From Escherichia phage Turkey5, in the sequence record PQ471516.1: a DNA stretch of 64,000 bases. One strand, 5' to 3'. The translations under genes were made by a program, and so were the position numbers. Shown piece by piece: positions 34,946-37,400 of this stretch. Position 1 is the first letter of the stretch; every line of letters begins with the position of its first letter. A model generated the notes under the pieces. That model was not told the DNA's origin, did not search any database, and saw only the letters and a program-made list of their open reading frames with translations.

Positions 34946-34976
34946 AAGCTCGTCTATTGACGGGCTTTTCTTTTAT
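34946..34976 (+). terminator. rho-independent terminator
   Basis: 7-bp stem gctcgtc/gacgggc then T-rich tract. Confidence 0.6.
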
Positions 34977-35010
34977 GTGTATACTGTATGAAAACTGGGA
35001 GGTATTTTGT

Positions 35011-35553
35011 ATGAAATTCTTTAAGAAGAAAGACGATTTAGATTGGTCTTCATATGTCCAAGAACGTAAGATTAATAAATGTATTTTTAAATTAATTACT
35101 AAAAGTATCTTACTCAAAGAAAGTATCACTACGGATCAAGACCGTAGAGATTTAATCAATTTAAAGTACAAAGTAAGTTCATTTTTCTTTTACAATCTAA
35201 TGAAAGAAATTGCAACGAGTACAGATCCTGAACGTTGGGATGTTGATGTTGACCGATATTACGGTGGGGACATTAGTTTCACTATTCGTGATAGAAAGAA
35301 GAATGTATCCATCAACGCTGATTATGATACGGCTGATAATGTTCAGTTTGATGATCCCAATTTACGAATAAAAGATGAAGAAATCAGAGTGAGTATTCGC
35401 AAAGATTTTGTTAAAACACATTTAGAAAGTCCAGAGAAATTCATTATGATTTACTTTGTTATGGAGTACGTTAGTGTTACAGAAAATCTAAAGAATTTAA
35501 GAAGACTACAAAATGAGCACGAGCTAAAACTATCAGTCAGAGATTGGTACTAG
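35011..35553 (+). CDS. hypothetical protein (tandem trio A)
   Basis: internal start MKFFKKK with GGGAGG RBS; DQDRRDLINLKYK motif shared with next two genes. Confidence 0.45.
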   Translation: MKFFKKKDDLDWSSYVQERKINKCIFKLITKSILLKESITTDQDRRDLINLKYKVSSFFFYNLMKEIATSTDPERWDVDVDRYYGGDISFTIRDRKKNVSINADYDTADNVQFDDPNLRIKDEEIRVSIRKDFVKTHLESPEKFIMIYFVMEYVSVTENLKNLRRLQNEHELKLSVRDWY

Positions 35554-35561
35554 GAGAGAAC

Positions 35562-36080
35562 ATGTTTTTCAAAAAAGACAAAGTGGAAAAAGAAGAGAAG
35601 AATTTAAACTTTCTTAATGACGTTATCCAAGTCCTTATGAAAAGTTATCAACTCAAAGATAAAGTACTGAATGATGACGACCGCCGATTGGTTATCGATA
35701 TTAAGTACAAATTGAGTAAACATCCTTTACTAACTCTAATCACAGAGATTGTTAAAGATCCACATGACAGCCGATGGAGATGGATTGAACAGTGTGCTTC
35801 CGTTTATTCCACTACTCGTTATGAATTACTTGACACAGTAACTGACGTTCAAGTGGGTGTGCGATGCTTTGATATAAAAAACGCAACACGACACAAAAAC
35901 ATCCGAAGTTCTGTTGATTTTAATAGTGATGTATTAGTAGAAGAAGAATCCATCTTTTTATTCTGTTTCTTGCACGGTTTGAATCAAATGTACACAACGA
36001 TTTCAGTACTGAACCAGCAGCAGAAAAATCTACAAAAACGTAATGAAATTAAGGATTTATATCAATGTTCAAAATCTTAA
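35562..36080 (+). CDS. hypothetical protein (tandem trio B)
   Basis: start MFFKKDK with AGGAGAG RBS; DDDRRLVIDIKYK motif. Confidence 0.45.
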   Translation: MFFKKDKVEKEEKNLNFLNDVIQVLMKSYQLKDKVLNDDDRRLVIDIKYKLSKHPLLTLITEIVKDPHDSRWRWIEQCASVYSTTRYELLDTVTDVQVGVRCFDIKNATRHKNIRSSVDFNSDVLVEEESIFLFCFLHGLNQMYTTISVLNQQQKNLQKRNEIKDLYQCSKS

Positions 36081-36565
36081 AGAAGCAACAAGCAAATACA
36101 AATCCTCTTACTGAGTTCATTGGCTCACTTATTCTAAGCAAAAGTCCATTACTTGTTCAACACTGCAAGGATGATTATGAACGTGAAATTATCATTAACA
36201 GAAAATACATTCATTCAAAATGCGACTCTATGATTTACAGCTTCGTAAAGTACTGCTTAGTGAATCGTAATTACGTCAGTGTTCATTGTGAAGATGAACC
36301 GTGTTATGATGGATGGGCGAAAGAATGGTTTATTTTTGAAAATGGTCGTGGGTTCAAATTCTTTTCATTACCTGATGGTTCAGTTTGTATCTTCATCGCT
36401 AACCGTAATGAGTGGGTAGAGTATTCCACATCAAAATATGATTATGATGTTCTCGCTGATTTATATCGTTGTATTAAGAATTTTCAAGTAATTGAAGCCA
36501 ATTTAGAAAAACAACGTAGAAATCTCAAATGCGTCGAACAATACAATGAAATGTACAGGTGCTAA
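36065..36565 (+). CDS. hypothetical protein (tandem trio C)
   Basis: start MFKILKK; DDYEREIIINRKY motif. Confidence 0.45.
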   Translation: MFKILKKQQANTNPLTEFIGSLILSKSPLLVQHCKDDYEREIIINRKYIHSKCDSMIYSFVKYCLVNRNYVSVHCEDEPCYDGWAKEWFIFENGRGFKFFSLPDGSVCIFIANRNEWVEYSTSKYDYDVLADLYRCIKNFQVIEANLEKQRRNLKCVEQYNEMYRC

Positions 36566-36567
36566 TT

Positions 36568-36966
36568 ATGGATATTAACGATATCTATAGTACTATACGT
36601 TCTATGGGTGATAGTCGAAAAGTATATGGTGATAGTAATCGCCAAAAGATATATGGCATTAACTCATACGATGTAATATCGTTTGAGTATGATGAAGGTG
36701 GACATAGTTCAATAAACATTGTTTGCCCACGTGACTCTGAAAATAACTTCATGTACGTTGAAATTAACAACGAAGGAATCAATTTCATTAAGATTCACAA
36801 AGGTGGAAAGACACATGAAGTACTGGATTTATCAGAAGAAGATCGTTTCTTTCAGGAAGATACAGTGATTGATTTAGGCTTTAGTCTAAGTGATTATCAC
36901 ATTCTCCAAGAAGATTTCCTAAAATATTACAATGGCTTCCTAAAGGAGTTAACAATACACTTATGA
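36568..36966 (+). CDS. hypothetical protein
   Basis: ATG at 36568 preferred over GTG at 36559. Confidence 0.4.
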   Translation: MDINDIYSTIRSMGDSRKVYGDSNRQKIYGINSYDVISFEYDEGGHSSINIVCPRDSENNFMYVEINNEGINFIKIHKGGKTHEVLDLSEEDRFFQEDTVIDLGFSLSDYHILQEDFLKYYNGFLKELTIHL

Positions 36967-37400
36967 ACCTAAATGTATCTAAAGAGTTTTTTGATGATGT
37001 CAAAGAATCTTTCTTACAATTAAACGAGAATAGTCGTTTAGATCCTGAAATCAAAGAGGTTGTTCTTCGTTGGCAGAAGAGTCCTTTATTAGATAAAATT
37101 GTTCCTAGATGGAGTTGTCAGGGTCACAGTGATACACATAGTGATTCTGATTATTACATTATTTTCTGTACACAGGACGATGGTGCTGATATTCTATATG
37201 ATATTTTTGATGAGTTTTGTAAGAGTGCCCGTTGGAACTACCGTGTTATTAAGTTGATTCACCAGAATCACTTAGTTGCGGAACCGCACATTGAAATTGG
37301 TCGATACACGGAAGGTCACCAGGAGACTATGAACCACATGAAAGCTTTATGGCTCGCCAAATTACAGGAGATTGAGGATAATCATGAGCAATACAAATAA
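36963..37400 (+). CDS. hypothetical protein
   Basis: 145 aa ORF. Confidence 0.45.
   Translation: MNLNVSKEFFDDVKESFLQLNENSRLDPEIKEVVLRWQKSPLLDKIVPRWSCQGHSDTHSDSDYYIIFCTQDDGADILYDIFDEFCKSARWNYRVIKLIHQNHLVAEPHIEIGRYTEGHQETMNHMKALWLAKLQEIEDNHEQYK

Follow-up and report, generated by a model that had tools for sequence, protein, structure and literature searches.

The window analysed here, a 64,000-nucleotide stretch of Escherichia phage Turkey5 (PQ471516.1), derives from an Asteriusvirus jumbo phage and is 97% identical to Escherichia phage vB_EcoM_JNE01, in whose record the same five plus-strand ORFs, here termed genes A to E, are annotated as CDSs (Table 1). The original prediction, made from the sequence of this region, placed three paralogous genes (A, B and C), each with its own ribosome-binding site, and two small ORFs between fibre genes and a nucleotidyltransferase gene. 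The position is correct, and Shine-Dalgarno-like sequences do precede A (GGGAGG, 34997-35002), B (AGGAGA) and C (AAGGA); but position 34957, given as the start, is just where the first TTG falls when ORF A is drawn at its longest, and it coincides with a promoter -35 hexamer, the true start of gene A being the ATG at 35011. Genes A to E and the RlaP-family nucleotidyltransferase gene are tightly packed, with intergenic gaps of -17 to +8 nt, including overlaps of 16 nt between B and C and 17 nt between E and the nucleotidyltransferase gene, and form an operon, probably translationally coupled, with the A/B/C array at its head. Neither this operonic association of the array with D, E and an RNA-repair nucleotidyltransferase, nor the conserved terminator and promoter that separate it from the fibre genes, had been noticed previously. 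The inverted repeat directly 3' of the nucleotidyltransferase stop codon lacks a T-run, and may mark the operon end. Three similar-sized genes at 12073-13547 were checked as a second paralogue array and do not form one, and no further family member was found elsewhere in the 64-kb window.

Table 1. Features of the A/B/C array, its operon and its upstream context in the window.
Feature	Position	Strand	Description
Three fibre-like paralogues	28898-34940	+	Upstream context, outside operon
Fibre-like gene, 899 aa	28898-31597	+	
Fibre-like gene, 195 aa	31610-32197	+	
Fibre-like gene, 908 aa	32214-34940	+	
Intrinsic-terminator-like hairpin	34946-34976	+	9-bp stem, loop TATT, then T-rich tract
Sigma-70-type promoter	34957-34985	+	TTGACG, 17 nt, TATACT; 10/12 matches (promoter scan)
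Gene A	35011-35553	+	180 aa, N-terminus MKFFKKK, family type I
Gene B	35562-36080	+	172 aa, N-terminus MFFKKDK, family type I
Gene C	36065-36565	+	166 aa, N-terminus MFKILKK, family type II
Gene D	36568-36966	+	132 aa, acidic, pI 4.6
Gene E	36963-37400	+	145 aa, optional operon member
RlaP-family Pol-beta nucleotidyltransferase	37384-38625	+	413 aa, final operon gene
12-bp perfect inverted repeat	38631-38673	+	TTATTGGTCACA ... TGTGACCAATAA, 19-nt loop (string search)

The sequence block D-x-D/Y-x-R-x-L/I-I-x-x-K-Y-K, which the trio was said to share, is present in A (DQDRRDLINLKYKV), B (DDDRRLVIDIKYKL) and C (DDYEREIIINRKYIH), and the homology extends well beyond it. A and B match directly by BLASTP (E 5e-8, 52 residues); pairwise BLAST of C against A or B is not significant, and here profiles confirm the relationship. 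Alignment of the type I (A and B) and type II (C) profiles with hhalign gives a probability of 98.8% and an E-value of 4.6e-17 over 150 columns (columns 13-174 vs 10-167), so the similarity is not confined to low-complexity N-termini. The PHROG profile phrog_7868 matches all three proteins at full length (E 6e-6 for A, 3e-8 for B and 1e-20 for C), while phrog_18641 matches them with E-values of 4e-20, 4e-32 and 5e-3, respectively; coverage is ~160 of 175 positions, and the family HMM returns E-values of 1e-37, 8e-43 and 5e-49. All 27 collected members match phrog_7868, and 20 of the 27 match phrog_18641. Conserved positions (K27, S28, L31, D38, R41, K48, Y49, S52, D91 and Y167) are spread along the sequence. 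These profile comparisons unite A, B and C in a single jumbo-phage-specific small-protein family, homologous over its full length, and comprising two ancient subtypes. With dN/dS values of 0.04-0.3, and orthologues annotated in ~35 phage genomes, A, B and C are real genes under purifying selection. The lysine-rich N-termini of the trio, together with the lack of a significant pairwise BLAST match for C, could be taken to mean that the likeness is one of chance or low complexity among ORFs that form no real gene family, but this explanation can be dismissed almost entirely, as it is already refuted by the phrog_7868 matches, the dN/dS values well below 1 and the profile-profile result, and is further at odds with a structural model that becomes confident once 27 homologues are aligned. 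The family is already catalogued in PHROGs, where it carries no annotation or Pfam model, and we found no literature on it; the present analysis describes its split into type I and type II and its conserved gene order. Searches of PADLOC, Pfam and NCBIfam returned no match for A, B or C, and nothing significant emerged when profiles of the family, of D and of E were run against PDB sequences. Two long matches from a representative search (P0022 and P0025), considered as domain fusions, were spurious hits to unrelated repeat proteins.

Of the local gene triplication first proposed, the paralogy stands but a recent, local origin does not, since the trio comprises two ancient subtypes whose copies share only ~19-28% identity. 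A positional orthologue of each copy is found in 121Q, A4, E9.1, Ecwhy_1 and phAPEC6, and Munch likewise has three copies in this position, so the duplications predate the genus, and the trio is not a recent local triplication. Copy-number variation, which had been suggested as a check, does occur: arrays in related jumbo-phage genera hold 2 to 4 copies, with the type II copy last where the array is compact. Gene A is the positional orthologue of 121Q gp502, gene B of gp503 (35% identity), and gene C of gp504 (35%) and RaK2 ORF002 (30%). At ~30-35% identity, trio orthologues are far more diverged than those of D (62-63%) or of the nucleotidyltransferase (68-75%).

This divergence is unevenly distributed over the predicted protein. 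The AlphaFold2 model of the gene B product reaches a pLDDT of 89.3 with a 27-sequence alignment; confidence is alignment-dependent, and a model built from 6 aligned sequences (pLDDT 45) was discarded. A conserved N-terminal helical scaffold (KS..L......D..RR.hI..KY.LSK) is predicted, followed centrally by a four-stranded beta region of hypervariable sequence and length (an insert of 52-98 aa); the C-terminal helix is constant in length, at 41-42 residues, and contains the invariant Tyr167. Mean identity is 31% in the scaffold vs 15% in the variable insert. The AlphaFold model has no match among PDB structures, and a Foldseek match to RnlA-RnlB (E 0.89) is not significant. The trio proteins have pI values of 7.5-8.3. 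As none of A, B and C contains a hydrophobic segment, a membrane or superinfection-exclusion role was rejected, and an ADP-ribosyltransferase or HEPN fold, suggested by the conserved R/S/Y residues, was likewise rejected because the model, an alpha/beta fold, places these residues in helices, and because no His or Glu is conserved.

Upstream, the array is set apart from the fibre genes by overlapping predicted transcription signals. The terminator scan places the hairpin directly 3' of the stop codon of the 908-aa gene; in an 8-phage alignment, three of its nine pairs show two-sided changes that keep pairing (RNAalifold), and a terminator is annotated at the same place in the Munch record. The promoter -35 hexamer lies within the loop and 3' arm of this hairpin. 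TTGACR is invariant in 121Q, A4, Ecwhy_1, Munch, and loci L012, L017 and L020, and in the same seven relatives the -10 hexamer reads TATAAT, TATAGT or TATTAT with unchanged spacing, while RaK2 has a terminator followed by TTGACA-17-TAAAAT. Both elements preceding the array, the terminator and the sigma-70-type promoter, are conserved. A repeated promoter family of the form TATTGAC...TATAMT was rejected, although the pattern is somewhat enriched in the window (allowing one mismatch, 4 matches against an expected 0.7).

These signals bear on the main rival explanation, that the trio products are assembly chaperones for tail fibres or tailspikes, or non-virion adaptors, serving the receptor-binding proteins encoded upstream. 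The 899-, 195- and 908-aa proteins match phrog_3573 and share a C-terminal domain of ~120 aa (by BLAST, the 899- and 908-aa proteins are 28% identical at full length, and the C-terminus of the 195-aa protein is 33-39% identical to both), so that three paralogues follow three proteins with a common domain, each of which would have its own small partner. In every locus whose upstream flank is on record, fibre-like or tailspike genes immediately precede the array: those of the 899/195/908 type in Asteriusvirus, Munch, L012, L017 and L020, 'minor tail proteins' in fHe-Yen9-04, and unrelated tailspikes (ORF532-534) in RaK2. In phAPEC6, the orthologue of the 899-aa protein (gp323c) and the neighbouring gp314c and gp315c were detected in the virion, whereas the trio orthologues gp319c-321c are absent from the 62 virion proteins detected by MS (PMC7247149 Table 1), indirect evidence, as it comes from a related phage, but in agreement with the typical absence of chaperones from virions; and rapid divergence would be expected of proteins that co-evolve with receptor-binding proteins. 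Against this, the conserved terminator and promoter stand between array and fibre genes, and the array is packed instead with D, E and RlaP. Copy number is also independent of the fibre genes: L020 has a 910/197/918 trio and two copies, L012 has a fibre trio but four copies, and RaK2 has ~10 tailspikes and two copies. Between 121Q and Ecwhy_1, identity is 91-92% for the trio but 74% for the adjacent fibre and 72% for the 195-aa protein, a difference showing that trio and fibre alleles do not co-vary. Given also that A, B and C match no PHROG tail-chaperone family, Pfam or NCBIfam model, we consider a chaperone function unlikely.

The genes downstream of the array offer a different context. Gene D (phrog_22376, E 4e-61; 63% identity to RaK2 ORF003) is a conserved partner in most loci carrying the family, being found in RaK2, Munch, L012/L013, L015/L016, L017, L020, 121Q and A4; it is absent from fHe-Yen9-04, and L019 has no D-sized gene adjoining RlaP. 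Nine D orthologues share 31 invariant columns, and the only domain match is a weak one to SduA/DUF4263 (E 0.0015). Gene E, with a conserved PRWSC(Q/E)(G/S)H motif, is found in JNE01, RaK2 (ORF004, 44%), L012 and L020, and neither 121Q nor A4 has it; Munch, L015 and L017 carry a DUF4326 gene in its place in the operon. The nucleotidyltransferase matches PF10127 RlaP (E 9e-16) and phrog_388 (E 8e-76), and bacterial RlaP extends damaged RNA at its 3' ends by one or two NMP (PMC12776372). RlaP lies downstream of family members in every locus that reaches far enough to show it (121Q, A4, E9.1, Ecwhy_1, phAPEC6, RaK2, Munch, L012/L013, L015, L017, L019 and fHe-Yen9-04), all of which come from one syntenic clade, and L020 has a shorter, unassigned gene of 287 aa at the RlaP position. 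A second enzyme, Thg1, is encoded beside or interleaved with family members in L021 and fHe-Yen9-04; in Eneladusvirus, Thg1 is inserted between family members and the array is operonic with it. The window further encodes Pnkp, a PolyA_pol/CCA-type nucleotidyltransferase, cREC, SIR2 and NUDIX, which in the terms of section 3.4.9 of PMC7824862 constitute an RNA-repair/NAD conflict gene set.

This neighbourhood could, however, be inherited synteny without functional meaning, the trio being generic early host-takeover or accessory proteins such as modulators of host transcription, proteolysis or metabolism. Many uncharacterised early genes in large phages typically share the features seen here: they are small, fast-diverging, driven by a sigma-70 promoter and confined to one phage clade, with alleles distributed in a mosaic, and all of the neighbourhood evidence comes from that single syntenic clade. 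Yet the linkage to RNA-repair nucleotidyltransferases outlasts rearrangement: despite the insertion of Thg1 in Eneladusvirus, the exchange of DUF4326 and E, and the loss of D in L019 and fHe-Yen9-04, the family stays in a unit with RlaP, and the tight gene overlaps suggest co-translation of A, B and C with D, E and RlaP. On balance we regard a generic early role as plausible but somewhat unlikely.

The reading that we favour, tentatively and as a possible though unproven role, is that the trio products are early cytoplasmic binding proteins in a phage RNA-damage counter-defence module. Host RNA polymerase would transcribe the array, either before the late fibre genes or independently of them, yielding soluble cytoplasmic binding proteins that may work in the same conflict module as RlaP, DUF4326 and, in Eneladusvirus, Thg1. 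The conserved helices might serve as a shared scaffold or as a surface for oligomerisation, perhaps into a type I/type II hetero-oligomer, leaving the variable beta insert to recognise a rapidly changing partner. Most plausibly, that partner would be either a host RNA-damaging defence effector, inhibited by the A/B/C protein, or damaged RNA substrates, which the A/B/C protein would deliver to the repair enzymes. A more specific proposal, in our judgement quite improbable, is that type I and type II proteins are new-fold specificity modules of a jumbo-phage counter-defence system against RNA damage, whose hypervariable beta insert would bind and neutralise diverse host nucleases that attack tRNA or other RNA, or select damaged tRNAs for RlaP and Thg1, and whose invariant C-terminal Tyr might, by analogy with HepT-MntA, be nucleotidylylated by the Pol-beta nucleotidyltransferase of the operon.

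Jumbo phages of the RaK2/121Q group are under therapy development, and >80% of their genes are without known function. Three 'hypothetical proteins' of this group now become a defined family of two subtypes in 2-4 tandem copies, for which there are a confident structural model with no relative among solved structures, a delimited transcription unit, and a link to RlaP and Thg1, the tRNA-repair enzymes of the phage, that is concrete enough to test. If a role in RNA-damage conflicts is borne out, the family would be a new component of a poorly characterised counter-defence class, and could help to explain host-range differences beyond those due to receptor-binding proteins; if not, the array is an unremarkable case of old accessory genes that diverge fast.

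Tail-fibre chaperones (T4 gp38/gp57A, lambda Tfa, Mu/P2 U'/G) are small, non-virion, fast-evolving proteins whose genes directly follow those for fibres or receptor-binding proteins, and the trio resembles them in each of these respects; but it has no sequence or profile similarity to them, lies behind a terminator and promoter, and varies in copy number and allele type independently of the fibres. T4 Dmd, which acts against RnlA/LsoA, exemplifies the small phage proteins that evolve quickly and inhibit host RNases or defence effectors. The trio proteins are likewise small, soluble, probably early and highly diverged, in what may be a counter-defence gene context, although they are not homologous to Dmd and, at 166-180 aa, are much larger. 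A further comparison is with RlaP-centred repair neighbourhoods, with which the locus shares an array operonic with a PF10127 nucleotidyltransferase, and Pnkp and a CCA-type nucleotidyltransferase in the window. RNA-repair neighbourhoods of RlaP are characterised, in the account cited as reference [178] in Iyer et al. 2021 (PMC7824862), by RNA ligases, and no A/B/C-like protein is named in the portions of PMC7824862 and PMC12776372 that treat them. By that account the present locus differs, as an RNA ligase, the feature behind the RlaP name, is absent from the A-RlaP operon; Pnkp lies at 9-953, 34 kb away, and an ATP-dependent ligase domain is encoded somewhere in the window. In HEPN-MNT (HepT-MntA) toxin-antitoxin systems, a Pol-beta nucleotidyltransferase AMPylates a tyrosine of its partner. 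A, B and C differ from HEPN partners in having no Rx4-6H motif, with no conserved histidine in the alignment, and in a predicted alpha/beta architecture with a four-stranded sheet that is not all-alpha, and in place of a minimal MNT the nucleotidyltransferase here is an RlaP of 413 aa. The parallel, only a lead, is that a Pol-beta-fold nucleotidyltransferase shares its operon with a small protein whose invariant tyrosine lies close to the C-terminus.

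We identify an ancient, two-subtype family of paralogues of variable copy number, preceded by a conserved terminator-promoter junction and packed into an operon with genes D, E and the RlaP nucleotidyltransferase (NTase). In the window the family comprises three neighbouring small genes, A, B and C (no further member was found within the 64 kb). Over 34957-37400 the sequence shares 97.3% identity with the 355-kb Asteriusvirus jumbo myovirus Escherichia phage vB_EcoM_JNE01 (JNE01); no other deposited phage is that close, and the JNE01 record carries the same six CDSs, each labelled hypothetical protein. 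From A to the NTase the genes are tightly packed: A and B are 8 nt apart, B and C overlap by 16 nt, C and D are 2 nt apart, D overlaps E by 4 nt, and E overlaps the NTase by 17 nt. A Shine-Dalgarno-like sequence precedes each gene, in agreement with the separate ribosome-binding sites of the original prediction. The feature had been opened at 34957, but this is merely the first TTG of the longest ORF, lying on a promoter -35 hexamer; the true start of A is the ATG at 35011.

Coordinates of the array, its operon partners, the upstream junction and the predicted structural elements of B
Feature	Position	Strand	Details
Terminator hairpin	34946-34976	+	9-bp stem, then T-tract; directly 3' of the 908-aa gene stop codon
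Promoter	34957-34985	+	TTGACG, 17 nt, TATACT; sigma-70-type
Gene A	35011-35553	+	180 aa; ORF table and sequence
Gene B	35562-36080	+	172 aa; ORF table and sequence
Gene C	36065-36565	+	166 aa; ORF table and sequence
Gene D	36568-36966	+	132 aa; ORF table and sequence
Gene E	36963-37400	+	145 aa; ORF table and sequence
NTase	37384-38625	+	413 aa; ORF table and sequence
Four N-terminal helices	B residues 4-65		AlphaFold2 model
Four-stranded sheet	B residues 72-118		AlphaFold2 model
C-terminal helix, 45 residues	B residues 127-171		AlphaFold2 model

In pairwise comparison A matches B directly (35% identity, E 5e-8, over only 52 residues), and C has no significant match to either. The phrog_7868 profile matches A, B and C almost end to end, phrog_18641 gives strong matches to A and B and a weak one to C, and A/B-type and C-type profiles, built from orthologues in 121Q, A4, Ecwhy_1, RaK2, Munch and metagenomic contigs, align over 150 columns (hhalign probability 98.8%, E 4.6e-17). 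Conserved positions run along the whole protein (K27, S28, L31, D38, R41, K48, Y49, S52 and D91 in B numbering), and Y167 is invariant in the family. Because these positions and the profile matches span the protein, a likeness limited to low-complexity N-termini is ruled out, and the paralogy first read from the sequence holds across near-full length. The family is small and, by tblastn, restricted to RaK2-like jumbo phages; an exhaustive HMMER scan (E <= 1e-3) of 1.84 billion representative proteins returned 29 clusters, two of which were discarded as spurious matches to repeat proteins. It is already catalogued in PHROGs, without annotation and without a Pfam model, and we found no literature on it.

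Clustering of 28 members separated two subtypes: type I, including A and B, with a DPxxxRW motif and an extreme C-terminus reading ...GLY, and type II, including C, with a SKCDPxVYxFxKYC motif. The middle copies of Munch and the related locus L017 form a divergent third pair, apart from both. Each of A, B and C has a positional orthologue in 121Q (gp502-504), A4, E9.1, Ecwhy_1 and phAPEC6. Counted with a family HMM, copy number is two in RaK2 (ORF001, ORF002) and the loci L016, L019 and L020; three in Asteriusvirus, Munch (at the same place) and L017; and four in both the metagenomic lineage L012/L013, in tandem, and Yersinia phage fHe-Yen9-04, interspersed. The suggested search for copy-number variation in related phages was thus fruitful, with two to four copies differing between genera. 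In compact arrays (the window, 121Q, A4, RaK2, Munch, L012, L016, L017 and L020) the type II copy adjoins D or a DUF4326 gene, and is preceded by one to three further copies, mostly type I; L019 has two type II-like copies with a DUF4326 gene between them. Of the proposed local triplication, then, the paralogy stands, but the two subtypes and the positional orthologues in related phages argue against a recent event. The array is old, and large phages commonly carry tandem arrays of this sort, made up of old and fast-diverging accessory genes.

Proteins A, B and C are just 25-35% identical between the window and 121Q, A4 or RaK2, whereas in the same comparison D retains 62-68%, the NTase 68-76% and the flanking fibre-like proteins 49-87% identity. 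Values of dN/dS for close pairs are 0.04-0.3, with a single outlier of 1.1 based on 11 substitutions; given these low values, A, B and C are functional and under purifying selection, which is somewhat relaxed in type I. The trio alleles are mosaic: 121Q and Ecwhy_1 share 92% identity across the trio, against 74% for the adjacent fibre and 82% for the NTase.

At the head of the array, promoter and terminator overlap, with the -35 hexamer falling within the loop and 3' arm of the hairpin. Across eight aligned phages TTGACR never varies, the -10 hexamer and ribosome-binding site are retained, and both sides of three of the nine stem pairs have changed with pairing kept. This composite element, with its compensatory stem changes, is kept in Asteriusvirus, Munch and three metagenomic relatives; in RaK2 a terminator is followed by TTGACA-17-TAAAAT, and the Munch record bears a curator-annotated terminator at the corresponding place. 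Since a conserved terminator and a sigma-70-type promoter precede it, the array thus probably opens its own transcription unit with a host-type promoter, gapless through D, E and the NTase, and the anatomy of that unit suggests early transcription. The same junction bears on the main rival explanation, that the products are tail-fibre chaperones: the position downstream of receptor-binding genes is equally conserved, but the terminator and promoter intervene between fibre genes and array, the trio does not co-vary with the fibres, and array copy number is independent of the fibre genes, such that we consider a chaperone role unlikely.

The upstream fibre-like genes (28898-34940; 899, 195 and 908 aa) are paralogous to one another: the 899-aa and 908-aa proteins share 28% identity end to end, and the 195-aa protein has only the shared C-terminal domain (~120 aa, 33-39% identity). 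RaK2 has unrelated tailspikes in their place. In phAPEC6 the orthologue of the 899-aa protein is a virion protein; that the other two are missing from the published virion proteome may reflect incomplete annotation, not biology, because their orthologues are intact by tblastn (63% identity for the 195-aa and 64% for the 908-aa protein), with no CDS annotated at their positions in the phAPEC6 record (L011 2956-6367). Other paralogous sets include an adjacent pair of 237 and 258 aa in the window (62221-62934 and 63022-63798; 32% identity over 233 residues, E 3e-33), and three tandem ~165-aa genes directly 3' of RlaP in the metagenomic relative L019 (4121-5639), which share a G(Y/W)TPxxNDGE(P/D)C motif and constitute a second, unrelated array.

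The NTase belongs to PF10127, RlaP. Bacterial RlaP is described as adding one or two nucleotides at the 3' ends of damaged RNA, and as required to restore function of heavily damaged tRNA (PMC12776372); in jumbo phages the enzyme has been interpreted as one component of an RNA-repair response to host RNase effectors (PMC7824862, section 3.4.9). Wherever a locus reaches far enough downstream to include RlaP, family members are found upstream of it; in L020 a shorter 287-aa gene without assignment takes its position. On the short contig L021 a member directly follows Thg1, an enzyme repairing tRNA 5' ends, and in fHe-Yen9-04 Thg1 and a DUF4326-sized gene (g144) are interspersed among the members. 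The rV5-like phages have a related NTase and no family member. D, an acidic protein, is a well conserved partner in most loci bearing the family, and much better conserved than the array (63% identity to RaK2; 31 invariant columns among nine orthologues); it is absent from fHe-Yen9-04, and L019 has no D-sized gene adjoining RlaP. D also weakly matches the Shedu SduA/DUF4263 nuclease model (E 0.0015). E and the DUF4326 gene are alternative optional members: E is present in the window, JNE01, RaK2, L012 and L020, absent from 121Q and A4, and replaced by the DUF4326 gene in Munch, L015 and L017. The conserved PRWSC(Q/E)(G/S)H motif and second conserved PH of E may form a metal or catalytic site, and no gene differs more between the window and JNE01 than E (94% amino acid identity, one indel). 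The NTase stop codon is directly followed (38631-38673) by a perfect inverted repeat of 12 bp (TTATTGGTCACA / TGTGACCAATAA), whose arms flank a 19-nt loop; it has no T-run and could bind a protein or, at the operon end, form an RNA structure.

More broadly, genes for RNA repair and NAD/ADP-ribose conflict are plentiful in the window, which encodes Pnkp (9-953; HAD_PNKP and kinase domains), a PolyA_pol-head (CCA-type) NTase, cREC, SIR2, two NUDIX proteins, a Nudt16-like protein, PhoH plus PIN, DUF4326 (27953-28345), an ATP-dependent ligase domain and a ribosome hibernation factor domain.

A, B and C have no transmembrane segments and a pI of 7.5-8.3, and their orthologues were not detected in the virion of a related phage. 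Structure prediction, as originally advised, yielded a confident AlphaFold2 model for B (27 aligned homologues; pLDDT 89.3, pTM 0.73). Family-wide, conservation is strongest in the helical scaffold (mean pairwise identity of 31%); the sheet region is hypervariable in both sequence (15%) and length (52-98 residues), and the C-terminal helix is constant in length (41-42 residues), with the invariant tyrosine at its end. On the grounds of neighbourhood, evolutionary pattern and predicted architecture, we tentatively propose that the three products may be early cytoplasmic binding proteins within a phage RNA-damage counter-defence module. The conserved helices would provide a scaffold or oligomerisation surface, and the variable sheet insert would contact a fast-changing partner, be it a host RNA-targeting effector or damaged RNA substrates. 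The main weakness of the counter-defence proposal is that a single syntenic phage clade supplies all neighbourhood evidence, and beside the proposal stands a generic early-gene role with no link to RNA repair, which we regard as somewhat doubtful. The bolder notion that the family has a new fold and supplies specificity or inhibitor modules to phage RNA-repair counter-defence is improbable. Although the A/B/C family is without the HEPN motif and fold, its invariant C-terminal tyrosine, encoded beside a Pol-beta NTase, speculatively recalls the HepT-MntA system, in which the NTase AMPylates a tyrosine.
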